64,000 nt of DNA from a virus: UHGV virus genome UHGV-1366919, one strand, 5' to 3'. Below, piece by piece: positions 4,982 to 55,829 of the stretch (positions are counted from its first letter, which is position 1; each line of letters begins with the position of its first letter). The notes beneath the pieces are model-generated. The model was not told where the DNA came from and made no database searches. It saw only the letters and a program-made list of their open reading frames with translations. The position numbers were made by a program, and so were the translations under genes.

Positions 4982-5089
4982 TTAACCAAAGAATACTTGA
5001 TAAAGTTGATAAATGCTTGCAATAAAAAGTATAACAATTGCTACGCCCAAAGCTTGCATAAAACCTTCAAATGATTCAGGATCAGCCAT
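4982..5089 (-). CDS. small hydrophobic membrane peptide (35 aa, MADPESFEGFMQALGVAIVILFIASIYQLYQVFFG)
   Basis: Hand-translated. Its stop abuts the next ATG. Confidence 0.4.
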   Translation of the reverse strand: MADPESFEGFMQALGVAIVILFIASIYQLYQVFFG

Positions 5090-5162
5090 GATATTTGATA
5101 TAGTTGATTGTTAAAAGAATGATAAAACCAATTCCAAAACCAGTAAGCCAGGATTTTATCAT
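5082..5162 (-). CDS. small hydrophobic membrane peptide (26 aa, MIKSWLTGFGIGFIILLTINYIKYHG)
   Basis: Hand-translated. Overlaps neighbours by a few nt (ATGGCTGA-type overlap). Confidence 0.35.
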   Translation of the reverse strand: MIKSWLTGFGIGFIILLTINYIKYHG

Positions 5163-5163
5163 A

Positions 5164-5289
5164 TTAAAACTTATCTGGATTTTCTGAAATCCATTTAGAT
5201 CCCCATGCCATTAGGCAAAGAACCAAAAGAATTGCAGGACCAACCAAAACCGGTTTAAGGGCCTCATATAGTTCAATAAGAAAAGTCAT
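5164..5289 (-). CDS. small hydrophobic membrane peptide (41 aa, MTFLIELYEALKPVLVGPAILLVLCLMAWGSKWISENPDKF)
   Basis: Hand-translated. Its start is 1 nt from the stop of 5290..5586. Confidence 0.4.
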   Translation of the reverse strand: MTFLIELYEALKPVLVGPAILLVLCLMAWGSKWISENPDKF

Positions 5290-5586
5290 TTAATAATATC
5301 CTATCCAGTTGTTAAGTGTTGCCAGTTCTTCTAATTTTGTTTCTGCTTCTTGAAGAGTCTTAAAAATAAAATCTTCTTTATTCAATCCTTGTTGAATATC
5401 CCAAATATATCCTCGTTTGATAAATTTGGAATGAAAATCTTCTCCTCCGATAATTACTCGGATAGAATAATCTTCTTTTTCAAAATGGACCACTTGAAGA
5501 TAAATCCTGAAACCGTCGCCGTCCCCAATATGATATGTCTTTGACGGCTCCAGGACAAATTCCGTAATACTACTTTCGTTTTCCAC
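5290..5586 (-). CDS. hypothetical protein (98 aa)
   Basis: ORF. Confidence 0.45.
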   Translation of the reverse strand: MENESSITEFVLEPSKTYHIGDGDGFRIYLQVVHFEKEDYSIRVIIGGEDFHSKFIKRGYIWDIQQGLNKEDFIFKTLQEAETKLEELATLNNWIGYY

Positions 5587-5962
5587 GCTGACCTTTCTTA
5601 TATTCCCAATTCTTCATCTTAAGAAGATAATAAACCCTCCCAACTGCAATTCCAGAAAGAACGGACATTTGCTTAACTGTACGATCCGGAGAATAAAACT
5701 TTCGAAGTTGCTCAATCTCAGGTTCCCAATCTCGAGTTTGCCGCCCTGAAGTAGCCCGGCCGCCAATTTTACCAACATAAACAATATCGCAAAGATATTT
5801 GCCAAGTTTGAAAAGATTGTTAACAGGCTTAATATTGTCCTCAATATTCAAATCCGAAAAATAATCTTCCTTTGCTTTATTGAGAACATCTTCAATTGTT
5901 CCAAATTTTACATTAACAATCTGAAAGTTTAATGTTTCAGTGTTGATAATTTTTATTTGCAT
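5570..5962 (-). CDS. hypothetical protein with C-terminal helix-turn-helix-like segment
   Basis: ORF. C-terminal TVKQMSVLSGIAVGRVYYLLK resembles an HTH. Upstream it carries CACCTTCAAATAATAAGG followed by TATAAT. Confidence 0.45.
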   Translation of the reverse strand: MQIKIINTETLNFQIVNVKFGTIEDVLNKAKEDYFSDLNIEDNIKPVNNLFKLGKYLCDIVYVGKIGGRATSGRQTRDWEPEIEQLRKFYSPDRTVKQMSVLSGIAVGRVYYLLKMKNWEYKKGQRGKRK

Positions 5963-6888: not shown

Positions 6889-8289
6889 TTAAACCCAGTT
6901 TCTTCGAACTATTTCACGAATTTCAGAAAAAGTTTGTTCTCGAATCAGTTTGCCATTCTCAAAAACTAGATCTAAAATATCTCTTTCAGAAGTTTCTTGA
7001 ATAGTTTGATATTTATTTATTTCGTTAAGAATCAAAGACAAACGCCCCTTCTTAGAAGCTTTTGACATATCCAATGGACGTTTTTGAACATCATGCCATT
7101 TATCGTCATACTTCTGAGCGGAACATTTAAAAGCAAACCGGCAAGTATCTCGGTTAATTTTTTGAAGAAGTCCTCCACCCATGCCAAAAGCCCAGTTTTC
7201 CGATGACCAGCCGTTTTTTGCAGATTCTTCAAGAATACGATCCATATCGCTAATATTGATACCATCACCCCAAAGAGCCCGAACTTGATCCGGAAGAACT
7301 TTGAATCCTTTATTGTTTACAGTATATCCGAAATATTGGCCGAGAAGTTCCAGTACCTGTTGAGATACTTTAATAATATCACCAGAATCAGGTCTGAATA
7401 CAATTCGTCCATTTCGATTGAGAATCAAATCCTTAAATTTTGTTCCGCAAACTTCAATGAATCGTTCATAATTGTATGAATCGATTACCATTGCCATAAT
7501 TCCGTCAGGATTCTTATTCAGCAGTTCTTCAACTACGCCAAACTCTCCTTCTTCTCCTCGAGAAGTCATGATGGAATGTTCAGTAGCCCTGATGCTATAT
7601 CCGAACATTTTATCAATATTCTCATTATAGTATCGGGAAGGAACAAGCAAAGCTGGAACGGTATCAGTCCCATTAAAATTCAGCAAATGGGCAGAGCCGC
7701 CCAGCATAGAAGCTTCAAAATTTTCAGTTCCCCGGCATCCAAAATCGTGAAGTTGAAAATTGAGAATATTATTAAAATCTTCTCCTTCTTTATCTGAGGT
7801 AGTTGTCAGCCAATTAGTTAACATTAACTTCCCATAATAAGAAGTTGTGGCGACTGTAATCGGGTACCATATATGAGTAAGAATAGTTTCGGCAAAATTA
7901 GTTAAGAAAGGAACTTTATCGTCAGTATTTTCAATAGTCATTAGAACATTGGAAATATCAATTAGGGAACCTTCTTTAACGGCCTTAATCCTAAGAGGAA
8001 GATGACCATTATATTTTTTAAGAATATATTCCCAACCTTCTTTATTAAAGATGCCAGGACCAATATGCCGAGTAATAAGATAATCAGCTTCATTAATCAG
8101 TTCCTGAGTAATAACAGGTCCTACAAAATATTTCTTAAGGATTGCCTGAAGGCCATAAAAAACAGTCTTAGGAAACTTAGAACCTTTACGGGCTTCGAAA
8201 TAAGAATATACTCCTTGAGTATTGTTAGGTAACATCTTGTCATGAGTATATTTGTAAGAATCAGCAGAAAATAAAATATTATCGGTCAT
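6889..8289 (-). CDS. nadV: nicotinamide phosphoribosyltransferase (NAMPT/NadV-type)
   Basis: 466 aa. Residue patterns (YKYTHDK..., GTDTV, FGMGG) are typical of the NAMPT family. It sits beside an NMNAT gene, as in phage NAD+ salvage pairs. Confidence 0.8.
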   Translation of the reverse strand: MTDNILFSADSYKYTHDKMLPNNTQGVYSYFEARKGSKFPKTVFYGLQAILKKYFVGPVITQELINEADYLITRHIGPGIFNKEGWEYILKKYNGHLPLRIKAVKEGSLIDISNVLMTIENTDDKVPFLTNFAETILTHIWYPITVATTSYYGKLMLTNWLTTTSDKEGEDFNNILNFQLHDFGCRGTENFEASMLGGSAHLLNFNGTDTVPALLVPSRYYNENIDKMFGYSIRATEHSIMTSRGEEGEFGVVEELLNKNPDGIMAMVIDSYNYERFIEVCGTKFKDLILNRNGRIVFRPDSGDIIKVSQQVLELLGQYFGYTVNNKGFKVLPDQVRALWGDGINISDMDRILEESAKNGWSSENWAFGMGGGLLQKINRDTCRFAFKCSAQKYDDKWHDVQKRPLDMSKASKKGRLSLILNEINKYQTIQETSERDILDLVFENGKLIREQTFSEIREIVRRNWV

Positions 8290-8293
8290 CGAA

Positions 8294-9199
8294 TTAAAGA
8301 GAAGAAATTAAAGTTTTGAATAATTGGCGATGAGCAGGATTAATGTCATCGATAGAAAGATCTTTGATATTGCAAAGATGCAACTCAGCAATATCATCAT
8401 GAGGAGCAGGATTACCCGAAACCCGGGTCATCAAAAACAAAGTAGTCATTACTTGTTCTACCTCTCCAAAATATCGCCAATCCTTAACTTTAAAAGATCC
8501 GATATATTTTTCAATCTTGCATTTCAGACCAGTTTCCTCTTGTGCTTCCCGAATTGCGGCTTCTTCATAAGAATTATCTTTAGGATCAATAAATCCGCCC
8601 GGAAACCTCAATGTTTTTTCACCGGGTTTTTTGGCAAGATAAATCTTTGAATAAGAATCATCTGTAAAGATTGCACAATCTACCGTGGGATAATAATAAG
8701 TCCAATTATTCTGAGTTGCATAGATACATCCTCGACGGAAATCTTCAGAAGTACCAATATTCTTTTTCAGTTCTTCTCGCAACTTTGTTCCAGATAATGT
8801 CAATTTTTGCTGGTATTCATAAGTCTCAAATTGACCGGTATAATGTTCAATAAAACTGTCTCTGGACCCATAAAGAATAACATCTGAATTACCATTAGTA
8901 ATCGCCAAGATTTGTTTATCAAGGTCAGAAGACCATTCTTCATCGGACATTACATCTGTTTTATAACAGATTTCAAACTTACCCGGATATTCTTCTTCAA
9001 TCATCCTTTTCCTGGAAACATAAGGAAGAGGATTATTCTTTGTACACCGAACATCTCTCGGAGGATTACCGAGAACAAGAATGTTCATGTAATGATTCTG
9101 ACTAAGGACAAAATCTAAAATTTCTTTATGTCCTTCCGTTAATTTATGTACTTGAAACCGGCCAACTATTACGCCGATTGCGTTTTGTTTATTTGTCAT
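8294..9199 (-). CDS. bifunctional NMN adenylyltransferase / Nudix hydrolase
   Basis: N-terminal GRFQVHKLTEGH matches the (H/T)xGH nucleotidyltransferase motif. The C-terminus carries the Nudix box GGFIDPKDNSYEEAAIREAQEETGL. Confidence 0.8.
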   Translation of the reverse strand: MTNKQNAIGVIVGRFQVHKLTEGHKEILDFVLSQNHYMNILVLGNPPRDVRCTKNNPLPYVSRKRMIEEEYPGKFEICYKTDVMSDEEWSSDLDKQILAITNGNSDVILYGSRDSFIEHYTGQFETYEYQQKLTLSGTKLREELKKNIGTSEDFRRGCIYATQNNWTYYYPTVDCAIFTDDSYSKIYLAKKPGEKTLRFPGGFIDPKDNSYEEAAIREAQEETGLKCKIEKYIGSFKVKDWRYFGEVEQVMTTLFLMTRVSGNPAPHDDIAELHLCNIKDLSIDDINPAHRQLFKTLISSL

Positions 9200-21431: not shown

Positions 21432-21506
21432 TGGAGGCTTCAATCGGTTATGCTCCGATGTTACCGGGTTACAAATCCGGGGTTTTACTGATTAAACTAT
21501 AAAGCC
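21432..21506 (-). tRNA. tRNA-Thr(TGT), CCA encoded
   Basis: Acceptor ggcttta/tgaagcc, D-stem gttt/aaac with 8-nt loop, anticodon loop tttgtaa, T-stem atcgg/ccgat. T-loop agcataa is non-canonical. 6 nt from tRNA-Gln. Confidence 0.5.
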
Positions 21507-21736: not shown

Positions 21737-21795
21737 TTCATCTTTCCTGATTACTTATGTTCATTACCACGTAAAGGTTTCTCCATTAATGAACT
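21737..21795. repeat. about 55-nt conserved element, copy B (partner of 18835-18892); overlaps the 3' acceptor of tRNA-Pro
   Basis: About 80% identity to copy A. In minus sense it forms the hairpin gttcatta...taatgaac. Confidence 0.6.
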
Positions 21796-21866
21796 CGGGT
21801 ACCAGAGGGTCGAACTCTGTTAATCATGCTCCCAAAGCATGCCCATAACCGTCCTGGCCATACCCG
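21795..21866 (-). tRNA. tRNA-Pro(TGG), CCA not encoded
   Basis: Acceptor cgggtat/gtacccg, anticodon stem catgc/gcatg with loop tttggga, T-arm cagag-ttcgacc-ctctg. The D-arm is short and irregular. Confidence 0.5.
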
Positions 21867-22452: not shown

Positions 22453-22989
22453 TTATAAATTATATTGTGGATAATGTAATTCTAAATGACAATTAGAACA
22501 TAATAAATCACATTTATCAGCTTCTATTTGTAAAATATTAATAGGTTTAGAACTAAATGCACTAGCACTTAAACTAAAACATTTTTTAGTATTTTCTCTA
22601 TGGTGAAAAGATAAAACAGCTAAATTTTTATTATAACCACAAATTTGACATTTTCCACCTTTTTGAGATATAAAAAATAATTTTCTATTTTTATATCTAA
22701 GTTTAAATGATTTATAATCTTTTTTAAAATTACGAGAAGTATTTTTAATTTTAGACCTACAAGAAATTGAACAATATTTTTGTTGTAAACCTGTTAATAA
22801 ATTATTACAAACAATACAATAACGTTTAATTTTATTATTTCCTTGAAATACTGTTTTTAAATTATATTCTTTTAATCTATTTTTAACTGTCATAGGTGAA
22901 CATTTTAATTCTTTTGCAATTTTTCGTGTACTTAATTGCTTATTAATTAAATGTTCTAATTGTTCCTTAGAAATATTTGACTTACCCAT
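22453..22989 (-). mobile_element. free-standing HNH homing endonuclease with N-terminal HTH; its stop abuts the tRNA-Met 5' end
   Basis: HTH STRKIAKELKCSPMTVKNRLKEY. HNH core CQICGY...LSFHHREN...CSNCHLELH. The cassette 22453-23660 is more AT-rich than its surroundings. Confidence 0.65.
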
Positions 22990-23349
22990 TTATTCAAATG
23001 GTATTTGACTTATATCATTTATTGACTCAATTTTATTAATCTCATTAATTATAATACAACAATTATACAAATTAATTATACCATTTTCAAAATCTTTCCA
23101 ATCATTTTCTGTTGGTTCATAGCCTTTTTCTACTTCACTCCAACTAATATAAAGGTTATTATCTTCAATCTCAAAATTAATTTCAAAAATAGGCCAAATA
23201 CTAATAAATTTATCTTTTAATTCTTTATAAGTTTCAAAATTAAAAATTGTCTGACCATCATATCTTTTTTGGAAAGAACGAATTTCGCCTTTTTCATAAT
23301 TATCTTCACTTACTTCAATAATAGTATTTGATAAATTAATTTGATACAT
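22990..23349 (-). CDS. hypothetical protein (119 aa) in the AT-rich cassette
   Basis: ORF abutting the HNH gene. Confidence 0.4.
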   Translation of the reverse strand: MYQINLSNTIIEVSEDNYEKGEIRSFQKRYDGQTIFNFETYKELKDKFISIWPIFEINFEIEDNNLYISWSEVEKGYEPTENDWKDFENGIINLYNCCIIINEINKIESINDISQIPFE

Positions 23350-23384
23350 ATTAATTATTATTCTGCGATTATTTTAATTTTTCC

Positions 23385-23654
23385 TTATGAATTTGTATAA
23401 TAAATTCGTTTAAATCCCATTGTTCTAAGCATATTCATACAATTTGCACAAGGTTTAGAAGATACAATATTTCCATTATTATCAATTCTAATATTAAAAA
23501 ATTCAATATCAGAACAATCTTCTTTTCCCAATTTAAGAATTGCAGAAATTTCTGAATGAAAGCAAGGTTTATAAGACTTAGAACCAAATACTTTATATTT
23601 TCCATATTTGATTTTATAAACAACTCGATCATAATTATTCACACCAATTGCCAA
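23385..23654 (-). CDS. mini cytidine/dCMP-deaminase-like protein (CDA fold zinc motifs HSE ... PCANC), possibly truncated
   Basis: CFHSEISAIL ... KPCANCMNML matches the H(A/C)E ... PCxxC zinc-binding pattern. At 89 aa it is shorter than typical CDAs. Confidence 0.4.
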   Translation of the reverse strand: MAIGVNNYDRVVYKIKYGKYKVFGSKSYKPCFHSEISAILKLGKEDCSDIEFFNIRIDNNGNIVSSKPCANCMNMLRTMGFKRIYYTNS

Positions 23655-23765: not shown

Positions 23766-24611
23766 TCAGAAGGTGCCTGCAAAAAGCCTTCTTCGAATTG
23801 ACATTAAATCTTTTCCAAGATTATTTTCTCCAATCCCATTACAAACTCCAAAATAAGTATCTCCCCAGGTATTTTCTTCAATAAGAATTGATTCTCCTGT
23901 TCTCATTAATAGAGTTTTAAATGGTTCTTGCTTGAATTTTTCTTCACAAACTGCATACATAACCATATTTTTAATTCTATCCCAATCTTTTCGAAGGGGA
24001 ACAGTTTGACCTAATTTCCTAGCTTCTTTCGGAGACAATCCAATAAATTGGGCACGAATACCAAGATCTTCAGTCTTAAGAGCTTGATAAGCAGCTTCAG
24101 TAGAATTAAAAACCATTCCTTCCGCTATTATTTTAACTTCGGCAAAATTAGAAAGAAATTTAAAAATGCCTCTAAAATCAGCAATTATACGAGGATAAGA
24201 AAAGAAATATCCATTTGTTCCTTTAAAATTATTGGAATCAACAATATCCCAATATTTGTTATCATTAAAATTATAAACAAAAGCTTTTCCAAACAAAATT
24301 GGAGGAGGCTGATGAGAAATATTAGGCCTCCAAGCTTCCTGAAGAGTGACAGAATCAGCCCTATCTCTATAATAATAAGAAACAGAATTATCCTTTAAAT
24401 CGGAAGGAATCCATGAACCAGCGGCAAGTTTATGCGGACTTAACCTATGAATATTCCCATTTTTAATTAAAAGTTCTGGACAATCATTATAATGGCATAA
24501 AACATTTGATAAGAATTCCATATGATCAGAAGTTCTCATATCAAATAGAAACAATTCTAACCAAACTTCTTTAAGACTATCATAGATAAAAAGTTGAGTA
24601 GGATAATTCAT
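23766..24611 (-). CDS. NADAR (YbiA-like) domain protein with N-terminal extension
   Basis: FLSNFAEVKI...EAAYQALK...EARKLGQTVPLRKDWD...LLMRTGESILIE..WGDTYFGVCNGIGENNLG fits NADAR-family conserved blocks. Confidence 0.6.
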   Translation of the reverse strand: MNYPTQLFIYDSLKEVWLELFLFDMRTSDHMEFLSNVLCHYNDCPELLIKNGNIHRLSPHKLAAGSWIPSDLKDNSVSYYYRDRADSVTLQEAWRPNISHQPPPILFGKAFVYNFNDNKYWDIVDSNNFKGTNGYFFSYPRIIADFRGIFKFLSNFAEVKIIAEGMVFNSTEAAYQALKTEDLGIRAQFIGLSPKEARKLGQTVPLRKDWDRIKNMVMYAVCEEKFKQEPFKTLLMRTGESILIEENTWGDTYFGVCNGIGENNLGKDLMSIRRRLFAGTF

Positions 24612-25255
24612 TTTCTTTTAATTAAAATTCGTTCTTCTTTAGATATAGGATTAATTTGGCAACCTTTTATTTCAAATCGTTCTTTAAAAGCTTTTTGGTT
24701 AATATTCAAAATATAAAAATTCCTTATATCTAATCTATATTTTTGATAAATCTTGATTGTTTTTAATGAATATAATGTAGCGTAATTAGCTGACAAAGTG
24801 CAAAGACCATCAAATGATTGGCAAGAATAAAAATTAAAACCATCAAATATAATATACTTCTTTTTTAGAAGAGCAGCATGAATAACATTCCACCATTTAA
24901 TTAAATCAGGATATTTTTCAATTAAAGTTTCCTTTAACCGGCAATAAAATTTATAACCTTGTTGTGCCCTTTTACCCTCAAAAGCCAATTTTCTTTTATA
25001 TTCTTTAATTCTTTTATTGAGAATTTTAACTCGAAGGTTATTAAATCTAAAATGGAAAGAATCAATTAAAAGAACTGTTTCAGTATCAACCAACGATAAA
25101 ATACTTTTTCCAGGAAAAGCTTCCTTAAATCGGAGCCAATGATAAATGTAATATTCAACAAGCTTCTCAGGGTTTTCTTTAAGATGATCTTCTATACTCC
25201 TTCCTAAAGGCTTAATAAGAGTTTTATATAACTCAACTTGAGAAATCTTGTTCAT
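24608..25255 (-). CDS. hypothetical protein (215 aa)
   Basis: ORF; 4-nt overlap with the NADAR gene. Confidence 0.45.
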   Translation of the reverse strand: MNKISQVELYKTLIKPLGRSIEDHLKENPEKLVEYYIYHWLRFKEAFPGKSILSLVDTETVLLIDSFHFRFNNLRVKILNKRIKEYKRKLAFEGKRAQQGYKFYCRLKETLIEKYPDLIKWWNVIHAALLKKKYIIFDGFNFYSCQSFDGLCTLSANYATLYSLKTIKIYQKYRLDIRNFYILNINQKAFKERFEIKGCQINPISKEERILIKRK

Positions 25256-25499: not shown

Positions 25500-26612
25500 T
25501 TAGATGTTCATTAATTTATTATACACCTTGAAACCAATAGGTGTTTTGCGATAAATCATCCACAGTAGAGTTTGATTCAAGCTAGGATAAGTTTTCAATA
25601 ACTGAACTACTTCATGGGCATCTTCATAAATATTGATTTCTTTTAACCTTTTTTGACATTCTTTATAAGGAAGAACTACGAATTGTTCAAATTTTTTACA
25701 AACCTCAATCATATTAGGTTTAATATATTCTGCGATCTCATAGTCAAATTGTTTTTCTACAAACTCATAAAACTGCTTTTGAACTTGTTCAGCTTCAAAA
25801 GTTTCCGGATTGAGATAACCATGTTCATACATCGCTTCAGCTACTTTGAGTATAGAACTTAAGGTAGATTTCATCCGATGCAAAGTACAATACCAATCTG
25901 ATTTTATCTTTTTAAGAAGCTGTCCATTATTAAAATAAACAACAACTCCTTCAGCCGAAGTCCAGGATTTAATCTTTTCATTTAAATCAATGTAAGATTT
26001 AATATCCGGATATTCATATTGCCTTGGCCGTTTAAATTTATATGTATGAGCAATCGAGTTTAATTCTTTCTGAGTGGCATAAGAGTAATCTTTATGATTA
26101 ACCTTTCCAATCAGGAATAAATCAGGATTATCATACTTGAGAACAATCTGATTCGTTGGGGTTACCCATTCAAAAATCAAAGAAAAATCTGCAGTTTCGT
26201 AAGATTTAAAATATAATTCAATCTTGTACTGTTCCAATAAAGGATTAAGTTCGGAAGCATTTTTCTGTTGATATGCAGAAATAGTACCTCTGGTTCGAAC
26301 AATAAGTTTTCCTTTATATTTTGAAACAATCAGACATGAACCATCTAACTTTTCGGTTAGAACAAAATCTTTATCATAGTATGGTGCAACTGGTTCAAAA
26401 GCTGGCTGTTCATTAAAATTCATGAACTTTCTAAATCCCAATGAAACTGGGAATCCATCAGAAACCCGCCAAATAGAAGAACGATAAATCTTATTTAAAT
26501 CAGTAAATTTGGCAGAAATCAAAGGCGTAATCAGAACACAAAGGTCTCCAGCAATTTCTACTTCTTTAAAAGAAAATTCTTCTTCGGATTCTTTAAACCA
26601 CTGATACTTCAT
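25500..26612 (-). CDS. RNA ligase, T4 Rnl1-like (tRNA sealing)
   Basis: Motif I LTEKLDGSC resembles Rnl1 KEDGSL. 370 aa. Lies in a cassette with a kinase and phosphoesterases. Confidence 0.55.
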   Translation of the reverse strand: MKYQWFKESEEEFSFKEVEIAGDLCVLITPLISAKFTDLNKIYRSSIWRVSDGFPVSLGFRKFMNFNEQPAFEPVAPYYDKDFVLTEKLDGSCLIVSKYKGKLIVRTRGTISAYQQKNASELNPLLEQYKIELYFKSYETADFSLIFEWVTPTNQIVLKYDNPDLFLIGKVNHKDYSYATQKELNSIAHTYKFKRPRQYEYPDIKSYIDLNEKIKSWTSAEGVVVYFNNGQLLKKIKSDWYCTLHRMKSTLSSILKVAEAMYEHGYLNPETFEAEQVQKQFYEFVEKQFDYEIAEYIKPNMIEVCKKFEQFVVLPYKECQKRLKEINIYEDAHEVVQLLKTYPSLNQTLLWMIYRKTPIGFKVYNKLMNI

Positions 26613-27333: not shown

Positions 27334-28434
27334 TCATTGACGTTCGGCTTTTAGGTTTTGGGGACTATATACTCCCAAATGGAGAATGTTAATAGCTGCA
27401 TTAATATCTGCATCCATCTCAGCTCCACAAGTCTTACAGTGATATACTTCACCTTGTCGACTTGACTTATTAACAGTATTACAAACGTGGCATCGTTGAG
27501 ATGTATAAGCAGGAGGAACTTTAATGAGTAAGAAACCTTCTTCTTCACTAAATCTACCTAACTTATTCATTACTTTAATGTAACTCCACCTTTGTAACTT
27601 GTTGTTAAACTTTTTGGAAAATTTTTTACCTCGTTTTACGTTCTTAAGATTCTCAACTATAATCTGCCCACAATCTTTATGCTCATTATAAAACTTTTTA
27701 ACGGTTCGGTTGATTGCTTGATCTCTTTCAATTAATGCACGTTTGAAAGCTTTAGACCGTTGTTTCTTACGAGAAATCTTTTCATAGATTCCTTCTAATT
27801 CTTTGCCGTAAACCTTTCCGTCACTACATGCGAGTAGTTTCTTGTAACCGCAATCGACACCAATCGGTCTACCATCATGCTTCGCTACTTCTTCTTTCTC
27901 CCAGTAAAGACATAACATTCCATTATCTCGAAGCATCATTGTTCGATTATTAAACTCGAATCCTTGATCTTTCAAACAGTTACAAGCATAATGAAACTTA
28001 ATAGGAATATTGAATGTAAGATAACGTGTTTTTGTTTTAAGATAAGGAGAAAAAATACGAATAAAATAATCAAACTCACCTTCCTCACATTTTTCAATAT
28101 CCCATAAATGGTAGTTAATATTAACTGAATGAGATTTGATTATAGGTTTAGTAAATGGTTTGTGACATTTTTTACCTTTATATTTTGCTAGTACCGAACG
28201 ATAAGTTTGTACTGCTTCACGATAACAATCAACTCTCCAGTTAGCATTTACTATATCATTAAGAATTGGTAACTCTTTACTCGAAAGATTAGTTTTAAGA
28301 GGCAGTTTCTTTTCGTAAATGAGGTCGATATATTTCTGTAGTAACCATTGATAATCAGATACTATCTTCTTATACAATACCTTTTTACCGGTATTGGCAA
28401 ACTTAATTGTATGTGAAGAAGTACGTAATATCAT
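27334..28434 (-). mobile_element. tnpB: TnpB-like RuvC/zinc-finger nuclease gene (IS200/IS605-type accessory, OMEGA family)
   Basis: C-terminal CHVCNTVNKSSRQGEVYHCKTCGAEMDADINAAINIL (zinc finger plus RuvC-III). Imperfect hairpin caatgaaatctaatgaaattcattg (7-bp stem) at the 3' flank. Confidence 0.65.
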
Positions 28435-28565: not shown

Positions 28566-29312
28566 TTAAAGCATAGAATCTTCTCGTCTGGGACAATATT
28601 GCTCATAATATGTCATTGAAAGTTCATTAAGACAAATACATTTACAATTTTTAAAATCAAAACTTTCATCTACATGATAATGTCCAAAGAACCAGAATTT
28701 TGGTTGGTAAATATCAAAGATCTTATTAATTATTAGCTGTTCTTCTTGAAGGTCATTACGCAAGTCAGCATCCTGCAAATACCAATAATCGAGGCGATTA
28801 TTAGAACACTTAGGAGGTAAGGGACCGCAATGGCTAAGAATACCATGAAGTCCTTTATTTTTAATAATATCTTTTTCAAGTTCATTATATTTGGGAAAAC
28901 TAATATTTTCATCAGCCCAGTAAGATCTTTCTATATCTCTAAAACATCTATCAATAGATGTCCCTCCTCCTATACACATGAAAAGATCATCATTTAATAG
29001 AAGCAGTTGATGATCTTTCAAATGAATAATATTCTCATATTCTTCATCAATTAAATCATCTTTCCAATGAGAAGGGTTGTCATGATTTCCTCGAAGCAAA
29101 TAAGCTTTACAATTAAGCTTTTTTAATTCATCATTAAGCCAGCCATAGTCAAAAGCATAATTATTATCATTAAAACCTACTCCAATATCTCCAAGAAGAA
29201 TCAAATGGGCATCAGCGATATTAAGATCTTTTATCTTTTCAACCAGCTGAAACTTTTTACCATGAATATCTCCAATGAGATAAATGTCACCTTCAATCTC
29301 AAGCATATTCAA
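28566..29312 (-). CDS. lambda-phosphatase-like (PPP family) metallophosphoesterase, candidate 2',3' phosphatase of the tRNA healing cassette
   Basis: GDIHG ... GDIGV ... LRGNHDN motifs. Confidence 0.65.
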   Translation of the reverse strand: MNMLEIEGDIYLIGDIHGKKFQLVEKIKDLNIADAHLILLGDIGVGFNDNNYAFDYGWLNDELKKLNCKAYLLRGNHDNPSHWKDDLIDEEYENIIHLKDHQLLLLNDDLFMCIGGGTSIDRCFRDIERSYWADENISFPKYNELEKDIIKNKGLHGILSHCGPLPPKCSNNRLDYWYLQDADLRNDLQEEQLIINKIFDIYQPKFWFFGHYHVDESFDFKNCKCICLNELSMTYYEQYCPRREDSML

Positions 29313-29778
29313 AATCAGGTTTAATTGTGCAAGTATTAAATCTATTCTTCATCCTTTGCATGGTTTCTTTTGGAATATCATGAATAGACCCATACTGAGT
29401 TGTCATCTTAATTACAAATACTTTTACATTATATTGCTTGGCTGCTAGAAAATAAGCTTTAAACTCTTTATCTGCAAGAAAAGTATTAGAACAAATACAG
29501 CTATGACCAGCTTTCAACCTAGAAAATGTCCTAGCTTGGCAAAAAATATGGGCGCTATGAAGATATTTTGGATTAAAATTATAATTTCCATCTTTATCTT
29601 CAAAATATTGGTCCGCTTCAAAATAAGGAATATTAAACTGACTCGAAACCTCCTTCGCCAAAGTCGTTTTGCCAGAACCCGGTAATCCCTGAATGATTAT
29701 CAGACAAGGTGCCTTCGTTGTCAGGATCATCTTTAAAATGTTCTTCAGCTTTTCGTTTTGCATGGAGTTGTAAGTCAT
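29299..29778 (-). CDS. P-loop polynucleotide-kinase-like protein
   Basis: Walker A IIQGLPGSGKTTLAK. The true start is probably internal (M17). The long ORF overlaps the upstream phosphoesterase ORF by 146 nt in another frame. Confidence 0.55.
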   Translation of the reverse strand: MTYNSMQNEKLKNILKMILTTKAPCLIIIQGLPGSGKTTLAKEVSSQFNIPYFEADQYFEDKDGNYNFNPKYLHSAHIFCQARTFSRLKAGHSCICSNTFLADKEFKAYFLAAKQYNVKVFVIKMTTQYGSIHDIPKETMQRMKNRFNTCTIKPDFEYA

Positions 29779-30505: not shown

Positions 30506-31958
30506 GGCTCTGTCCTACCACAGTGTTGATTTTTAAGGAATCTTTCATGCTGTAAGACTTAATGTGTTGATGTTACCATCAAGACAATGGGTGAAGCCCC
30601 ACCCTCTACACCTTGGTCGGAGACCGACATCGGGTGCTTCTTTTCTATATCGATTTTAATTGGATTAAACATTGATTTGTGAGGTGAGAATGTTTTGCCG
30701 AGACCTCTACGCAGTATGTTAGCGGCACCATTGATGTCGGCGTTTAACATGCATCCAACAGAGCTTACAAACAACCCACGTTTCTTTCTCTTACCCATAT
30801 ATTCATCATAGTGACAAATATCCTCGTCGTCAAGGAATGAGCATTTGGAGGTGTGAGACTCATTGTGAGTTTCCACATTGATACCGGCTTCACTTGCTTT
30901 GTAAGACAACATCCAAATGAGTTGAGAATGTGGAATGCTCACAAAGTTCTGATTGTTTCGTTTACCAATGTTTACTTCCTGCTTCCATCCATCATTATGA
31001 CCGATAAAGCAGTTTCCGATTTTGTTTTCTACCATCAAATCAACCACTGAACGACTAGCCTTGTGCATATAATCTTTTGTTTTGTTATTGCGCTTTCTAG
31101 TAAGTCTCCTGAGTTTCTTTGATGTATTCATATCTCTCTCAGCCAACTTAGATACAATTTCAGCGTAAGTCTTGTTATAATATTGGTTGATGCTCTTTAA
31201 TGGTCTGCCATTAACAAGGTGGGATATAGACCCCTCGTTTGAAGTTACAGCCATTAAGTTATCAATACCAATATCTATCCCTACTGCTTTGTTGTAGTCT
31301 AAGTCAACCGGAGAAATCTTTGTTTTGTAGAAGATTTGTATCTCTATACATCCTTGCTTTGGCACAAGACGAAGCTCTTGCAAGGAGGTGAGCTTCGTTT
31401 TAATTGAAAGCTTAAAGTCCTTGCGAATGTTTATCGTTCCGTCTTTCTGGATTTTCGCGTCATTATAAGAGAAGGCAACGGAAAATAACTTATCGCCATT
31501 TGCTTCTTTCTTATACCTGGGCATCCTTGGTTTCCCAGTGAATTTCTGTGGATTCTTCTTGTATGAGTTAAGAGACCTGAACCAAGTAGAGAATGATTCG
31601 GCACACTTCTTCACAGTTTGTGCTGCTTCGTTATCCTTTAACAACGATCTAAAATCTTTGTCGTTTAACTTCCTCATTCTGGTGATTAGGTCAAACACAG
31701 AGATAAATTTCTCTTTCCTGATTATGTCTGTGTATTCAGGAATGTTCTCGTGTTTGCCACTAAACGCTTGGCGGAGAATGTATAACGTTCTATTGTAAAG
31801 AGATGTATTCAGAGAGCATTCTTGCACAGCCCAACCATAGAAGGATGTCCCTTCTTTTATCTGGTGCGTTTCAACTCTGATTGCCTCTTCTTGCATTCGC
31901 TGTTGTATATATTATACCATAGGTTTATCAGAAATCAACACTGTGGTAGGACAGAGCC
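30506..31958 (-). mobile_element. tnpB: TnpB-encoding element bounded by perfect 27-bp terminal inverted repeats
   Basis: ggctctgtcctaccacagtgttgattt at 30506-30532 is the exact reverse complement of 31932-31958. ORF 30559..31896 (445 aa) ends ...CMLNADINGAANILRRGL (RuvC-III) with a zinc finger CSFLDDEDICHYDEYMG. Confidence 0.7.
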
Positions 31959-44376: not shown

Positions 44377-45981
44377 TCACTTTTCAGATTGTTCATCAAC
44401 CAAAAATGTTTCTGTTGTTAGAATCAAACCTGCCGATGCAGCGGCGTTTTCAATTGCGCAACGACATACACTAAATGGATCAATAATTCCCGCTTCTAAC
44501 ATGTCTACTAACTTTTGCGTCTTAATATCAAACCCAATACTGCCTTTAGCTTTTGCGACCTTTTCGATGATAACATCCGGCCGTTCAACTCCGGCATTCT
44601 CAAGAAGAGTCTTAAGAGGAATGTCAAGAACCTTTCGCATCAGGTTAATACCAGCATTAAAAGATTCATCCCCTGTTTCAAACTTAATAGACTTATTCTC
44701 TTTAATCTTAGCAAGAACAGATCCTCCCCCTGGAATAACTCCGGATCGTAAAGCTGCTTGACAGGCACATACCGCATCATCTACCCGGTCCTTAATTTCA
44801 TTTAATTCAGATTCAGAATTACCTCCGATATTAAGAACACATACTCCTTGGGCAAGCTTGGCAATTCGCTTATTAAGCACATCTTCTTCCCATGTGCCGG
44901 GACTGCAATTATCTCGTTCCTCCTTAAGCAAATCAATATGTTCTTTAAGCCTTTGAGGATTTCCTCCGCCTTTTAAGAAAGTTGTATATCGTTTATCACA
45001 AACAATCTTTTCACAGGTGGCAAAATCTTCCTCTCTAATAGAATTAAAATCACGTGAAAGAAGTTCAGTAAAATATGTACCTCCTAAAGTAATTTCAAGA
45101 TCTTCCATTTCCCTCTTCATGCCGTCTCCATATCCTGGACACTTAATGGCACAAATGTTAATAATGCCTTTAATCTTATTAATGACAAGAGTTTGAAGAA
45201 CTTCGGATTCAATATCCGGAGCGATAATAAACAAAGGCCTTCCGCGAAGTTCTTTAGTATTAAAGACTTTCTGAAGAATAGGCATAATTTGCTGATTATT
45301 TGTCAATTTAATTCCAGATAAAAGAATTAAGGGATTTTCAAGAATACATTCTTGTTTAGTCGTATTATTGACAAAATAAGAACTCATCCAGCCTCGAGGA
45401 ACTCGTAAACCTGCAATAAACTGAGAAGAAGATTCATTGCTCCTGCTGTCATTAATAGTAATGGAACCATCCAAACCTACTTTTTCAACAGCTTCAGAAA
45501 CAAGATGTGCAATTTCTTTATCCCAGTTGGTAGAAACTAAAGCAATTTGGTGAATCTGTTCTGGAGAACATTCCTGCTTAATATTTTCTTTAATATAGTT
45601 GGCAATTGTCTTTGCCGCTGAAATAACTCCGCGTTGAATTGAAATCGGATTATAACCTGTTTCAATCAGCTTCATGCCTTCAGATGCAATAGCCTCAGTG
45701 AGGATTGCGCTGGTACTGGTCCCATCACCAGCCTGGTGCGCTGATTGCTCGGATGCTTGACGAATAATATCTGCACCCATTTTTTCAAGTACATCAGGCG
45801 GATTTACATGGCGAGCTACTGTAACGCCGTCTTTTGTAATATATGTCGCATTACCCATTCGATATATTACATTTCTACCGCCAGGCCCGAGCGTCGAAGA
45901 AACTGCATTAGCAAGTTTCTTTACACCATTAAGCAGTTTCTTCCTGCCTTCATTTCCCATATAAATGTTTTGTTGAATCAT
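44377..45981 (-). CDS. groEL: chaperonin GroEL (Hsp60)
   Basis: LGPGGRNV, ITKDGVTVAR, AGDGTSTSAIL and the overall length (534 aa) are diagnostic. The C-terminal GGM repeat is absent. Confidence 0.9.
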   Translation of the reverse strand: MIQQNIYMGNEGRKKLLNGVKKLANAVSSTLGPGGRNVIYRMGNATYITKDGVTVARHVNPPDVLEKMGADIIRQASEQSAHQAGDGTSTSAILTEAIASEGMKLIETGYNPISIQRGVISAAKTIANYIKENIKQECSPEQIHQIALVSTNWDKEIAHLVSEAVEKVGLDGSITINDSRSNESSSQFIAGLRVPRGWMSSYFVNNTTKQECILENPLILLSGIKLTNNQQIMPILQKVFNTKELRGRPLFIIAPDIESEVLQTLVINKIKGIINICAIKCPGYGDGMKREMEDLEITLGGTYFTELLSRDFNSIREEDFATCEKIVCDKRYTTFLKGGGNPQRLKEHIDLLKEERDNCSPGTWEEDVLNKRIAKLAQGVCVLNIGGNSESELNEIKDRVDDAVCACQAALRSGVIPGGGSVLAKIKENKSIKFETGDESFNAGINLMRKVLDIPLKTLLENAGVERPDVIIEKVAKAKGSIGFDIKTQKLVDMLEAGIIDPFSVCRCAIENAAASAGLILTTETFLVDEQSEK

Positions 45982-47711: not shown

Positions 47712-48761
47712 TTAATTACCAGCAGGTTTAAAATCCGCAATATTCAGAACCTTAAACAAACCATCATTTTGATTAGCTCCTCCCATAATCAGCATTGAAG
47801 GAAGTTTAATATCTTTGAAAGATTCAAAAAACTTAATTCGAGCATAATTACTTCCCATTGCTGCATTCAATTCTCGAATTGCTTCAGCTTCAAGCTTCTT
47901 ACCTTGAGCTTCTGCAGTCTTCATAGCAAGAAGAGCTTCTGCTTCATTTTTCTTTTGAGCAAGCATGGCCAAAGACTCTTGTTCTCGGCGATACCTTGCA
48001 GCATCAGATTCAGCCTTAGCCTGAAGAAGCTTACCTTGAGCTTCTGCAGCCATCTTATTGGCAATTGCCCGGCCTTCTGCATTAGCAATCTCTTCGGAAC
48101 GCTTTGCAATTTCAAGCTGGGTAGCCTGGCGTTCATATTCCTGAGTAGCCTCAACCTTCTTAGTAATACCAAGAGTCACCGATTCAGGCGGAATAGTGGA
48201 ACCAATAGTTACACTTTCAACAATAAATGGAGTACCATTAAGTTGCTTCTTAAGGTTAGTCTCTACCATCTTGGTGATTTCCGGAATCCGGGAAGGAGCT
48301 TCTAGGCCTTTAAACTTAGCAATAGCAGATCGTACTTCAGTACGGAAAGGTTGCTGAATAAATGAAGCATAAGCATCTTGAGCAATAGCTTCCGGGCTTC
48401 GAGCTGTTTCAGAGATAGCTCCATAATTTTCAACAAATTCCTTTACTTTTTCACTGTCGATACGATAAACAAGATAAGATTCAGCCTTCATCTTAAGTTG
48501 GTCCGAACTGCGGACATCATCAAAAGTTTCAGTCTGAGTATAAGGAGTTACGCAAATCTTAATAGAATTCTGCCTCCATACCATACCTGTACTACCGGGT
48601 CCTTTAATTACTTGTTTAAATTCCTTCGAACCAAATATTGGTTCGGAATAAACATAACCCGCATAACCGCCATCAATTTTTTCATTTGAAAAATTAACGG
48701 CAAAAATAATAGCCGCAACAATGGCAATAATTAGAAATAGAGCTGCAAAAAAATCCTTCAT
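47712..48761 (-). CDS. SPFH/band-7 (flotillin/HflK-like) membrane protein
   Basis: N-terminal TM, SPFH core, C-terminal Ala/Glu-rich coiled coil (EAEGRAIANKMAAEAQGKLLQAKAESDAARYRREQ). Confidence 0.6.
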   Translation of the reverse strand: MKDFFAALFLIIAIVAAIIFAVNFSNEKIDGGYAGYVYSEPIFGSKEFKQVIKGPGSTGMVWRQNSIKICVTPYTQTETFDDVRSSDQLKMKAESYLVYRIDSEKVKEFVENYGAISETARSPEAIAQDAYASFIQQPFRTEVRSAIAKFKGLEAPSRIPEITKMVETNLKKQLNGTPFIVESVTIGSTIPPESVTLGITKKVEATQEYERQATQLEIAKRSEEIANAEGRAIANKMAAEAQGKLLQAKAESDAARYRREQESLAMLAQKKNEAEALLAMKTAEAQGKKLEAEAIRELNAAMGSNYARIKFFESFKDIKLPSMLIMGGANQNDGLFKVLNIADFKPAGN

Positions 48762-49261: not shown

Positions 49262-49828
49262 TTATATTTGATATGTGATTAAATCCGTTGTCAATTTATT
49301 AATTGTTTCAATAAATGCTACCGGGATAGCTTCTTCAATTTTTAGTAAAAGTAATTTTAAGTTCTCATTAACTTTAGGGCCAAATAAAATATATTGAGTA
49401 TCATTGTTTAAATCGACAGAATAAGCTTTAAAATTTGCTTGATTAAAACTTATAACTGTAAATCTATCAACAATTAAATTGTTTTTTAAAAAAGTCTCTC
49501 TGACAAAATTCTCAAGATCTCTGGAATAAATTCCTCTATGATGATCTACTTCTACTTCAATTAAAAAAGATTGATTTATATCAATAAAGTGGTCAAATGA
49601 AGCTATTCCTAAAGTATTCCACCAAGTAAAATACCTTTCATTAAGGCCATTCTTTACTTTAATGATTTTGCTTTTATTGGCAAATGGAGAGTAAATTGTA
49701 AAAGCATGTTTAAAATCTTCAATAGTCCTGTAAGCAGGATCTTCAAAGAATTCTTCTTCAAATAAATCGACTTGGTAAGTTTTACCATTACCAAGTCGAT
49801 CAATAAGTTTGAAAACTGCTTGTTTCAT
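49262..49828 (-). CDS. hypothetical protein (188 aa)
   Basis: ORF. Confidence 0.45.
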   Translation of the reverse strand: MKQAVFKLIDRLGNGKTYQVDLFEEEFFEDPAYRTIEDFKHAFTIYSPFANKSKIIKVKNGLNERYFTWWNTLGIASFDHFIDINQSFLIEVEVDHHRGIYSRDLENFVRETFLKNNLIVDRFTVISFNQANFKAYSVDLNNDTQYILFGPKVNENLKLLLLKIEEAIPVAFIETINKLTTDLITYQI

Positions 49829-50502
49829 TAACTCTCAGCAACACGAGCCTTCAAACGGGCAAGAGCATCTTCTTTAGATACAGATTCAATAAATTCATTC
49901 ATTTCATCTTTAGTATCATTAAGAGTTCCGCTTACTTCAATTGAAGCATCGGCCTTAGAATCTTTCTTTTCAAGAATCTTATCTACATCTGCCAGCATCC
50001 CGTTAAAATCATTTTTGCCTGAAATATTCGCAATATCCTTCAAAGCAGCAAGATCTTCCTTCATAGCAGCAGATGCAGCCTTCAACTTAATCTGTTCAAT
50101 TCGAGAATCATAAGAATTAAGAACAACTCTTTGATTACTAATCAACTTATCATAAGTTGCAGTTGCTTCTTCAAGAGCCTTTTCAGCCATATCAAGCTGT
50201 GCCTTAGTATTTTCATATTGAAGAGAAAATTCGGCGGCAAGACTTTCCTTGCCATTCTTAAGAGCAAGAATGGCTCGTTCATTGAGAACTTGAACCTTTT
50301 GCTTAAGACTCTTTACATTTTTAGTCATGTTGTTTACTGTAGTCTTTACAGCAACCAATCGTTCATAAATTTCTTGCTCGGCCTTGCTCTTTTCATCTTC
50401 GAGAGACGCAATAAGAGCATCAACATTCTTACTTTCAAGTGAATTTACACCAAGATTAAGCCAGCCAAACAAAACACGTCCCAAACGTCCAATAATTCTC
50501 AT
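49828..50502 (-). CDS. PspA/IM30-like coiled-coil protein
   Basis: The N-terminal amphipathic helix MRIIGRLGRVLFGWLNLGVNSLE and long coiled coil resemble PspA/Vipp1. Confidence 0.45.
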   Translation of the reverse strand: MRIIGRLGRVLFGWLNLGVNSLESKNVDALIASLEDEKSKAEQEIYERLVAVKTTVNNMTKNVKSLKQKVQVLNERAILALKNGKESLAAEFSLQYENTKAQLDMAEKALEEATATYDKLISNQRVVLNSYDSRIEQIKLKAASAAMKEDLAALKDIANISGKNDFNGMLADVDKILEKKDSKADASIEVSGTLNDTKDEMNEFIESVSKEDALARLKARVAES

Positions 50503-50816: not shown

Positions 50817-51281
50817 TTAATTTCCTGCGTATTCAACTAAAAGAACAGAAATATCATGCTTTGTTCGAAAATTATACAAAAGATTTTCAAATTCTTTTGG
50901 TTTTACTCGTCCTATACCGCATCCCAAAAAAGGCATTACAACAGTATTAAGATGATGAGTGTTCATAACTTCAAACAAATCGCAAAGAGACAAAGAAATA
51001 TCTCCCAAATTTGCTATTGAACCAGGATAAAACATGGTTGGAACATTGGCAATCATTTTCCAATTATCTTCATCGGACAAATAAAAATAATGGCCTTTAC
51101 CAATATTAACCATTTTAGAATTACAAGAGTTCTGATAACTCCAGTACATTTCAGGAAATTTATCGGCAAAAGCTTTTGCAACTCCTGCTCCCATTACTCC
51201 GATACAATTGACGGCATTGCAAATTACATCCGCCTTTGTATCAAAGATATTTCCTTTTGTTTTAATAACTTTAAGAGACAT
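50817..51281 (-). CDS. macro domain (ADP-ribose binding/processing) protein
   Basis: GNIFDTKADVICNAVNCIGVMGAGVAKAF is the canonical macro-domain N-terminal signature. Confidence 0.7.
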   Translation of the reverse strand: MSLKVIKTKGNIFDTKADVICNAVNCIGVMGAGVAKAFADKFPEMYWSYQNSCNSKMVNIGKGHYFYLSDEDNWKMIANVPTMFYPGSIANLGDISLSLCDLFEVMNTHHLNTVVMPFLGCGIGRVKPKEFENLLYNFRTKHDISVLLVEYAGN

Positions 51282-54466: not shown

Positions 54467-54790
54467 TTAAACTATCTCCTTAAAGTCAAAAGTCTCATCA
54501 TCCTCATTGATAAATGAAACAAGATGGTAAGTTTCATCAGAAAATCCGTCTGAAACTTTTACTTTAATTTCCCACCCTTCCCCGAACAATCCTCCATAAG
54601 TACCCCAGAAAATTTGAGAAGCACAAAATTTAGCAGCATCCGCCATATTTTGGATATTGTTAGCTTTAATATCATATTTGTTAACAATCAAATAACCATG
54701 TTTCTTAACTTTTCCGTCATCCCAAAGTTCTTTAGCAATGCAAACATAATTTGCATCCTTAAGAAGTGACATATTAATCTTTTTACTCAT
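54467..54790 (-). CDS. hypothetical protein (107 aa), overlaps the upstream NTase gene by 8 nt
   Basis: ORF. Confidence 0.4.
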   Translation of the reverse strand: MSKKINMSLLKDANYVCIAKELWDDGKVKKHGYLIVNKYDIKANNIQNMADAAKFCASQIFWGTYGGLFGEGWEIKVKVSDGFSDETYHLVSFINEDDETFDFKEIV

Positions 54791-55829
54791 AAAAATTTAA
54801 AATATAATTCTTAAAAAATTCCTTATCAGGTTTTTCAGGTAATTTTGACTTATTAAACAATTCTTTTAATTCTAAAGATTTTTCATTTGCCAACTTCATT
54901 AGATAATCATATTCAAAATCGCCATTTCTAATCTTTAAAAGAAATTGTCTTAAAATAGGATTACATTTAACCGTTAATGTTCCATCTTTTAAAATCTCTC
55001 TGCAAAGACTCATAAGACGGAAAAGATGCATCATATTCTTTGTATCATAAAAGGTTTTATCAGACGTCTTTTCTACATTTGTTGCATATCTTTTTTCATT
55101 CCTTTTAGCAACCCAATCCCAGTATTCTTTATATTCTTTACAATATTTCTGATAAGCCGGAATATTAATAATCACATAGGCTGCGGTATTTGCATTTTTT
55201 GGAACCGATGTAATATTAATGTTCATGTCTAAAATAGGTCCGGCTTTACAAGGATGATTATAAAGTACATAAACATTTTCAGCATGATTCATTTTACAAA
55301 GAGATAAATTAGTCTCTTTAATACCACAGCATTCCAACCAGTCTCGATAAGGAATAGAATGTTGATAGCACAACACCCAGCTAAAATCTTTTAACGTTTT
55401 TCTTTCTTTAGGAAAAGGATTAGCTGACTTTTTATTAACGTTTTTGGCCTTTAAAATTTGAGATTCAGCATAAGCTCCAAAAGTATAAAAACATTTCTTG
55501 GAAAGAACTTTTTCAATTAGGGGATCAAATCGTTTATCCCTAATTTTAACATGTTCAGGATCAGTAGTAAACAAAACTTCAAGAGCCGAAGGAGTATTCT
55601 TTCTTAGTTGTTCAAGGAAGAATCCAATCTCGGTATAGATAGTATCATTATTATTCTCCTGGATTACCTTTTCATATTCACCAACTAATATATCTTTAAC
55701 AGGATGAGCAAAAACACCTCTAATATCAACATCCGAATCTTTAGTATTCAACCCATAAGAAATACTTCCCGCAATAACGCTCAATAATACTTCTTTACCC
55801 TTCAGAGGTCCTTCTCCACTTAAACACAT
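54783..55829 (-). CDS. Pol-beta superfamily nucleotidyltransferase (minimal NTase motif GS-x9-DxD); possibly RNA-repair-associated (RlaP-like)
   Basis: AGSISYGLNTKDSDVDIRGV matches the G[SG]...D.D nucleotidyltransferase fold signature. Confidence 0.5.
   Translation of the reverse strand: MCLSGEGPLKGKEVLLSVIAGSISYGLNTKDSDVDIRGVFAHPVKDILVGEYEKVIQENNNDTIYTEIGFFLEQLRKNTPSALEVLFTTDPEHVKIRDKRFDPLIEKVLSKKCFYTFGAYAESQILKAKNVNKKSANPFPKERKTLKDFSWVLCYQHSIPYRDWLECCGIKETNLSLCKMNHAENVYVLYNHPCKAGPILDMNINITSVPKNANTAAYVIINIPAYQKYCKEYKEYWDWVAKRNEKRYATNVEKTSDKTFYDTKNMMHLFRLMSLCREILKDGTLTVKCNPILRQFLLKIRNGDFEYDYLMKLANEKSLELKELFNKSKLPEKPDKEFFKNYILNFYE

Follow-up and report, generated by a model that had tools for sequence, protein, structure and literature searches.

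The 64,000-nucleotide stretch of the virus genome UHGV-1366919 analyzed here (the window) carries a gene for a 281-amino-acid protein that joins an N-terminal domain to a NADAR catalytic core, and a second gene for a stand-alone macrodomain protein (Table 1). A sequence-only reading of the window had drawn both open reading frames (ORFs), assigned them to the NADAR and macro families, and taken them for candidate reversers of nucleic acid ADP-ribosylation. The ends of both ORFs were confirmed exactly, and profile searches place each protein above the cut-off of the family proposed for it. Pfam NADAR (PF08719) matches residues 152 to 276 of the first protein with an E value of 3.7e-18 (66.7 bits; gathering cut-off, 35.1), and PHROG 1017 matches residues 143 to 277 (E value of 2.4e-32). 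Pfam Macro (PF01661) matches residues 21 to 131 of the second protein with an E value of 9.6e-12 (45.3 bits; cut-off, 22).

Public assemblies contain the exact 281-residue protein in 102 blocks, on contigs about 200 kb long, with human gut samples among them. Its cluster at 90% identity holds 752 members, with a length of 281 residues in 15 of the 15 members listed, and the corresponding cluster of the macro protein holds 463. This recurrence in public assemblies and the size of the clusters show that neither ORF is there by chance. The phage, of about 200 kb, is widespread in the human gut, and its genes are those of a large lytic phage with many accessory functions. At 99% identity the window matches the IMG/VR contig UViG_3300045988_182131, and no close relative of the window was found among 50,697 deposited phage genomes.

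Catalytic core of the NADAR protein

The core was aligned to the ADP-ribose complex of the P. nicotianae NADAR protein (PnNADAR; 8bau), to E. coli YbiA (2b3w), and to phage T4 gp30.3 (AdfN). The NADAR catalytic residues, on whose presence the earlier domain claim depended, are all in place. E172 corresponds to E43 of PnNADAR and E36 of T4 AdfN, K179 corresponds to K50 and K43, and E245 corresponds to E125 of PnNADAR, a position held by Glu in YbiA too and by His in T4 AdfN. None of the three varies among 21 homologues or among 15 population variants, and mutation at these catalytic positions impairs the NADAR proteins of E. coli C7 and T4. W210 and D251 are also conserved, and the position of PnNADAR W133 is occupied by Phe254.

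The AlphaFold2 (AF2) model of the core, from about residue 145 to residue 281, has predicted local distance difference test (pLDDT) values of about 75 to 97 and a YbiA-like α-helical fold. Foldseek aligns it with YbiA with an E value of 2.7e-9 and a template modeling score of 0.75 (normalized to the target), and with PnNADAR (8bau) with an E value of 2.9e-6, while the match to DarG1 of G. lovleyi (8bat) is weak (E value of 0.77). The G. lovleyi DarG1 chain is also absent from the results of the PDB sequence and profile searches made with the NADAR protein. The core is a Glu-type (YbiA-like) NADAR, belonging to neither the T4 nor the DarG1 type. Its nearest phage relatives, retrieved by tblastn from the 50,697 phage genomes, are free-standing NADARs of about 150 residues (438 records, up to 47% identity), among them those of the T5-like Markadamsvirinae, with 38% identity to the core, the group to which the source of AdfN-Bas32 belongs.

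The comparison with T4 gp30.3 shows a shared NADAR fold and Glu/Lys pair, a location in an early-gene region, and a 4-nucleotide overlap with a neighboring gene. The two differ in the His that T4 has at the position of Glu245 and in their neighbors, which are unrelated, and the match of the core to the T4-type Pfam family Phage_30_3 (PF08010) stays at 26 bits, below the cut-off of 36. A tie to the T4 gene series gp30.1 to gp30.9, gp30.2 included, was rejected, as neither the N-terminal domain nor the product of the adjoining 215-codon gene resembles any of these proteins. DarG1 of E. coli C7 and G. lovleyi (PMC11543638) is a member of the same superfamily with the same predicted chemistry, and it too has an N-terminal extension. 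However, the first Glu is residue 88 in the C7 protein and residue 172 here, and the catalytic D171 of C7 DarG1, two residues before the conserved Glu, has L243 as its counterpart according to the numbering of that paper. Furthermore, DarG1 adjoins DarT1, whereas the neighbors here are the 215-codon gene and a gene for a minimal deaminase, with no DarT.

Many databases annotate proteins of this kind as housekeeping N-glycosidases, which would destroy reactive intermediates of the riboflavin pathway as YbiA does, and the source annotations of the present cluster accordingly read "ribA/ribD-fused uncharacterized protein." The Glu-type core and the best PDB match, E. coli YbiA, are what such a role would lead one to expect. 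Nevertheless, the riboflavin N-glycosidase equivalog TIGR02464 scores 59 bits, under its curated cut-off of 73.7, the vicinity holds no riboflavin genes, it is not obvious why a lytic phage would need the activity, and YbiA itself hydrolyzes ADP-ribosylated guanine (G-ADPr) and cytosine (C-ADPr). A housekeeping role is scarcely credible on this evidence.

Orphan N-terminal domain and truncated alleles

About 140 residues precede the core, some 120 to 125 of them beyond the length of free-standing NADARs, so that the extension of 130 residues described by the sequence-only reading was about right. Conservation, indels (insertions and deletions), and the ratio of nonsynonymous to synonymous substitution rates (dN/dS) resolve the protein into three parts: a selected domain of about 100 residues, a linker that varies, and the NADAR core. 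Residues 1 to 24 are almost invariant across orthologues that are 65 to 77% identical overall, and the invariant residues of the domain include T5-Q-L-F-I-Y-D11, H30, C44, and H55. By the Nei-Gojobori method with three orthologues, dN/dS is 0.10 to 0.29 for residues 1 to 100 and 0.12 to 0.21 for the core, and it reaches 0.41 to 0.51 for residues 101 to 145, where the orthologues also differ by indels. The N-terminal domain is therefore under purifying selection. An artifactual extension, due to a wrong start or to genes fused through sequencing error, was considered and is ruled out by the prevailing 281-residue form, the conserved residues 1 to 24, and dN/dS values well below 1. The overlap of the start codon with the stop of the upstream gene (ATGA) likewise marks the region as coding. 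The invariant TQLFIYD may bear a loose likeness to a clamp-binding peptide, QLxL[FY].

The domain is an orphan, with relatives confined to its own clade. A word-indexed search of 5.8 billion proteins retrieved the full architecture in only three or four of them (P0001 to P0004, 65 to 100% identity), and when the N-terminal 145 residues were turned into a profile and run exhaustively with HMMER against 1.84e9 representatives, nothing came back beyond the cluster of the protein itself and pieces of that cluster. No match to the domain was found in Pfam (E values up to 10, three orthologues), PHROG, PADLOC, NCBIfam, or the PDB profiles, and residues 1 to about 135 are covered by none of the 438 phage NADAR records. 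The AF2 model has pLDDT values below 50 for residues 1 to 140, where the 21-sequence alignment is only four sequences deep, and a fold search with this part is consequently not meaningful.

Among other NADARs, the extension of DarG1 adjoins the active site and has been proposed to bind single-stranded DNA (ssDNA) (PMC11543638); it is short (β1-β2-α1), basic, and homologous among DarG1 proteins, whereas the extension described here is about 85 residues longer, and no sequence relationship to it was detected. AdfN of the Bas32 type (PMC11825919) resembles the present protein as a phage orphan NADAR with no adjacent toxin and with the Glu/Lys pair, but of the two only the present protein has the orphan domain of about 100 residues and its linker, and "most phage NADARs lack" an extension according to the same work.

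A binding module would be expected to look much as this domain does, confined to one clade and held by purifying selection. The protein could then be a nonenzymatic or dual inhibitor, with an N-terminal domain that grips DarT or an NADase effector (Retron-Eco1-like) and a NADAR pocket that binds ADP-ribose without turnover. AdfA and AdfB neutralize DarT through binding, DarG2 joins a hydrolase to a toxin-binding domain, and another phage NADAR (Carabias 2024, Retron-Eco1) needs no enzymatic activity, as that study is cited in PMC11825919. The strict conservation of the full catalytic triad nevertheless argues for catalysis, and among population variants the N-terminal domain is no focus of variability and shows no arms-race signature (variable sites, 0.15 versus 0.12). 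Taken together, these observations make an inhibitor of this kind quite unlikely.

The intact form predominates, but naturally truncated alleles of the gene recur. In near-identical phages from two samples (L001 and L002; positions 247 to 1092 of L001), codon 80 (positions 24372 to 24374) is changed from TAT to TAA, giving the Y80* allele. The independent W94* allele, in which codon 94 (24330 to 24332) is changed from TGG to TGA, lies on the IMG/VR contig, where just six further nucleotides differ (L005, positions 5001 to 5846). Further truncated forms correspond to indels in short homopolymers, for example at codons 47 to 50 and 115 to 116, near codons 91 and 118, and in the G4 run at codon 249. 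Most of these fall in the N-terminal half and some are carried by up to 30 contigs, although part of them could be assembly errors. A natural truncation of AdfN in RB69 parallels the two nonsense alleles. Downstream of the nonsense codons the NADAR frame stays intact, and gene callers restart at the TTG codon of L106 (24294 to 24296), from which a 176-residue ORF is called in both samples; no Shine-Dalgarno-like sequence was found upstream of L106. The occurrence of nonsense alleles in near-identical phages implies that the NADAR gene is dispensable in some settings, as accessory counter-defense genes typically are.

Macro protein and gene neighborhood

The macro protein is of the DarG type (ALC1 class). 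It matches PHROG 335 and the PADLOC DarG model (E value of 1.1e-30), and it reaches 103 bits with NCBIfam antitoxin_DarG, below the cut-off of 250, over model positions 4 to 145 of 338. The closest PDB entry by sequence is the Mycobacterium tuberculosis DarG macrodomain (5m3i; E value of 1.6e-17), followed by that of T. aquaticus (5m31), and the C-terminal DarT-binding domain of DarG2 is not found in the 154 residues. The catalytic residues that the sequence-only reading relied upon are kept in part. The elements that bind ADP-ribose are retained, namely, N25 (N22 in TaqDarG and N23 in AdfM) and the loops GVMGAG and LGCGIG, but Met83 aligns with K80 of DarG, K84 of TARG1, and Q85 of SCO6735, at the position of the essential Lys or Gln. 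All 15 cluster members sampled have Met83, as do two further proteins (P0029 and P0030), and the surrounding motif PTMFYPGS is common to relatives at 39 to 45% identity. In other phage macro proteins of the ALC1 class the position is held by Lys, as in PhiKZ AdfM among others, or by Gln, as in the rV5 Tk.4 type and Ackermannviridae.

AdfM (PhiKZ gp104) is likewise a stand-alone protein and shares with the present one and with DarG2 the match to the DarG model, the Asn at N25, and the phosphate-binding loops; identity to AdfM is 25%, and its catalytic Lys (FPTKxxW) is replaced. The motif context T-x-FYPG is shared with SCO6735 and with the Tk.4-type phage proteins (YTQFYPGP in rV5 and Ackermannviridae). 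SCO6735 still cleaves thymidine-ADPr as an ALC1-class macrodomain without the Lys (PMC9411070), but it and the Tk.4-type proteins have Gln, and Met is unable to hydrogen-bond with the ring oxygen of the ribose in the way proposed for Gln85. Since K80A inactivates DarG (PMC5179494) and Q85A/E inactivates SCO6735 (PMC9411070), hydrolysis of thymidine-ADPr cannot be assumed in the presence of Met83. From its sequence, the macro protein likely binds ADP-ribose, and its activity on thymidine-ADPr is uncertain; it may use an altered mechanism or only bind ADP-ribose, given that Met replaces the essential residue.

The ATG start codon of the NADAR gene overlaps the stop codon of the gene upstream, which encodes a 215-residue protein. 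Searches of Pfam, PHROG, PADLOC, NCBIfam, and PDB with E values of up to 10 gave no match to the protein, and its single-sequence AF2 model, mostly helical, is of too low a confidence to be informative (pLDDT of 38). The pairing of this gene with the NADAR gene, with RNA ligase 1 before it, is kept in relatives that are 65 to 77% identical (L017 and L018) and on seven further contigs (L021 to L027). Such strict co-occurrence in all relatives, together with the 4-nucleotide overlap, would also suit a system in which the NADAR protein, the macro protein, or both limit a transferase of the phage itself, with the 215-residue protein as a cryptic ADP-ribosyltransferase (ART), comparable to YarT-YbiA. 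ART-YbiA toxin-antitoxin pairs exist (PMC11125620), and ARTs are often too divergent for Pfam. Against this, the 215-residue protein lacks any library or PDB match and its low-confidence model is mostly helical, a Pfam scan detects no ART domain in the approximately 59 ORFs of the window, and the NADAR nonsense alleles survive in nature, which is unexpected for the antidote to a linked toxin. A modifier encoded by the phage is thus very improbable.

Upstream, the block runs in the order AAA_33 kinase, Metallophos phosphatase, RNA ligase 1, 215-codon gene, and NADAR gene, an order kept in L017 and L018, and a tRNA cluster lies directly downstream of the NADAR gene. The position of the NADAR gene at the end of a conserved RNA-repair block and next to tRNA genes raises the alternative that the enzyme removes guanine ADP-ribose from tRNA, mRNA, or rRNA hit by a host transferase. 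No hydrolase family other than the NADARs is known to remove ADP-ribose from guanosine in RNA (PMC11833690). However, that genes are neighbors in phage early regions says little about a common function, phage NADARs have been shown to act in vivo on DNA (PMC11825919), and no natural defense that ADP-ribosylates guanine in RNA has been linked to NADAR reversal. RNA-directed repair is accordingly an unlikely, if coherent, reading of the locus.

The window has a G+C content of about 31 to 34% and is coded almost wholly on the minus strand. A PAS-domain protein, unusual in a phage, is encoded on the plus strand (60276 to 60917), against the direction of nearly all other genes. A promoter and terminator scan of this DNA, at 31% G+C, was uninformative, with 46 sites against 31 expected. 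The genes of the RNA-repair set (Table 1) form a broad repertoire, which suggests strong pressure from defenses that target tRNA or other RNA; a DUF2828/DUF7788 protein is encoded at 11146 to 12630. The NAMPT and NUDIX pair resembles NARP2, the phage pathway that rebuilds NAD+ from nicotinamide by way of NMN, and would be a further NAD+-centered counter-defense. Other accessory genes encode a DNA ligase, ThyA, dihydrofolate reductase (DHFR), and a thioredoxin.

One of the two TnpB genes (27334 to 28434) sits between the RNA ligase 1 and Metallophos genes and is missing at the same place in L017 and L018, which indicates a recent insertion. Close relatives (L001 and L021 to L027) share the trio of genes that follows the NADAR gene, and no such genes are called at that place in L017. 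Among the tRNAs, two found by Rfam (21435 to 21506 and 18297 to 18380) were missed by ARAGORN, and the tRNA-Pro called by ARAGORN at 21795 to 21866 has no Rfam support. An 88-nucleotide tRNA-Asp called by ARAGORN within the macro coding sequence (51024 to 51111, minus strand) was rejected as a probable false positive, as Rfam finds none there.

Table 1. Positions of the genes, protein parts, and key codons in the window
Feature	Position	Strand	Remarks
N-terminal domain plus NADAR protein gene, 281 aa	23766-24611	-	ORF; Pfam NADAR; PHROG 1017
Orphan N-terminal domain, residues 1-100	24312-24611	-	Conserved
Linker/extension, residues 101-145	24177-24311	-	Variable, with indels
NADAR catalytic core, residues 146-281 plus stop	23766-24176	-	Alignments; AF2; Foldseek; dN/dS
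Codon of E172	24096-24098	-	
Codon of K179	24075-24077	-	
Codon of E245	23877-23879	-	
215-aa gene	24608-25255	-	ATGA, 4-nt overlap with NADAR start; translationally coupled
Macrodomain protein gene, 154 aa	50817-51281	-	Stand-alone, DarG type (ALC1 class)
Codon of N25 (macro)	51207-51209	-	
Codon of Met83 (macro)	51033-51035	-	
RNA ligase 1	25500-26612	-	T4 type; RNA-repair set
Metallophos phosphatase	28566-29312	-	Pnk-like with AAA_33 kinase; RNA-repair set
AAA_33 kinase	29299-29778	-	Pnk-like with Metallophos phosphatase; RNA-repair set
Second RNA ligase	9705-10718	-	PHA02142 OB domain; RNA-repair set
RlaP nucleotidyltransferase	54783-55829	-	RNA-repair set
NAMPT and adjoining NUDIX-domain protein	6889-9199	-	NAPRTase plus NAMPT_N, 466 aa; NUDIX protein, 301 aa
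Downstream trio	22453-23654	-	Minimal deaminase-fold protein, 89 aa (TTG start; HSE and PCxxC zinc motifs); 119-aa gene; HNH endonuclease with N-terminal helix-turn-helix (HTH)
TnpB/Cas12f-like (OrfB_IS605)	27334-28434	-	
TnpB/Cas12f-like (OrfB_IS605)	30559-31896	-	
DDE transposase	15169-16200	-	IS1595 family
GroEL-like chaperonin	44377-45981	-	Cpn60, 534 aa; near macro gene
SPFH/Band-7 protein	47712-48761	-	Near macro gene
PspA/IM30-like protein	49828-50502	-	Near macro gene

Proposed counter-defense role of the NADAR protein

The 281-residue protein is best explained, with a probability of roughly 55%, as a predicted phage-encoded ADP-ribosyl-nucleobase glycohydrolase that serves as an AdfN-like orphan-antitoxin counter-defense. 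NADARs reverse the ADP-ribosylation of guanine in DNA (PMC11543638), and every NADAR subtype tested, including the YbiA type and those of phages, hydrolyzes guanosine-ADPr (PMC11125620); some, the YbiA type among them, also reverse the ADP-ribosylation of cytidine (PMC12945103). Phage NADARs (AdfN, 2025) reverse the guanine ADP-ribosylation made by DarT1, and three unrelated ones (T4, T5-like Bas32, and Bas60) neutralize DarTG1 (PMC11825919). The phage macrodomain AdfM (2026) reverses thymidine ADP-ribosylation by DarT2 and acts against DarTG2 (PMC13309987). The role against DarT-type toxins that the sequence-only reading had proposed is therefore plausible and has been demonstrated elsewhere for AdfN and AdfM, although for the macro protein it extends no further than the domain; with both factors already published, the idea is not new.

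In the proposed mechanism, the NADAR core would most likely strip ADP-ribose from guanine, and possibly from cytosine, in nucleic acid. The task of E172 and E245 would be to place the distal ribose and activate it, with K179 holding the pyrophosphate and adenine. The enzyme would thereby undo the marks that a host transferase of the DarT1 type, or another guanine-specific one, places on replicating phage DNA. The N-terminal domain would be a clade-specific accessory module on a flexible linker that may tune the site or substrate of the enzyme, and candidate functions are targeting to the replication fork, to ssDNA, or to a phage partner, and binding of the toxin. The macro protein may add protection against thymidine ADP-ribosylation. 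The NAMPT and NUDIX genes, the Pnk-like pair, the two RNA ligases, and the macro protein together fit an accessory counter-defense gene set.

Several observations weigh against this explanation. YbiA and T4 AdfN hydrolyze G-ADPr in vitro but do not rescue from DarT1 outside their own context, and the core is of the Glu type rather than the Asp type of DarG1 or the His type of T4 AdfN. Truncating alleles recur, and the full-length protein can thus be done without in many settings. The N-terminal domain has neither a homologue nor a confident structure, which leaves its role to guesswork, and the residue on which every characterized ALC1-class hydrolase depends is missing from the macro protein. 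A different account would make the N-terminal domain a new module within a two-mode factor, which either binds and blocks the host transferase or another NAD+-using defense effector while the core erases the marks, or tethers the enzyme to the replication fork, perhaps through the invariant TQLFIYD, and would make the Met83 macro protein a silent decoy or sponge for ADP-ribose. This account, too, is unlikely.

For specialists, a NADAR and macro pair is to be expected in a large phage, and its presence is unsurprising. The novelty lies in the fusion of a NADAR to an orphan N-terminal domain and in the Met that the macro protein carries in its active site. The Met83 macrodomain would either extend the mechanistic diversity of the ALC1 class or define a phage macro protein that only binds. 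The abundance of this phage in human gut metagenomes makes both genes ecologically relevant, and the intact NADAR frame behind the nonsense codons raises the question of a short, NADAR-only form. The fused NADAR also bears on specificity, where T4 AdfN depends on a further phage factor and DarG1, too, has an extension: the natural fusion offers a handle on the narrow in vivo specificity of NADARs, with truncated alleles available for comparison.

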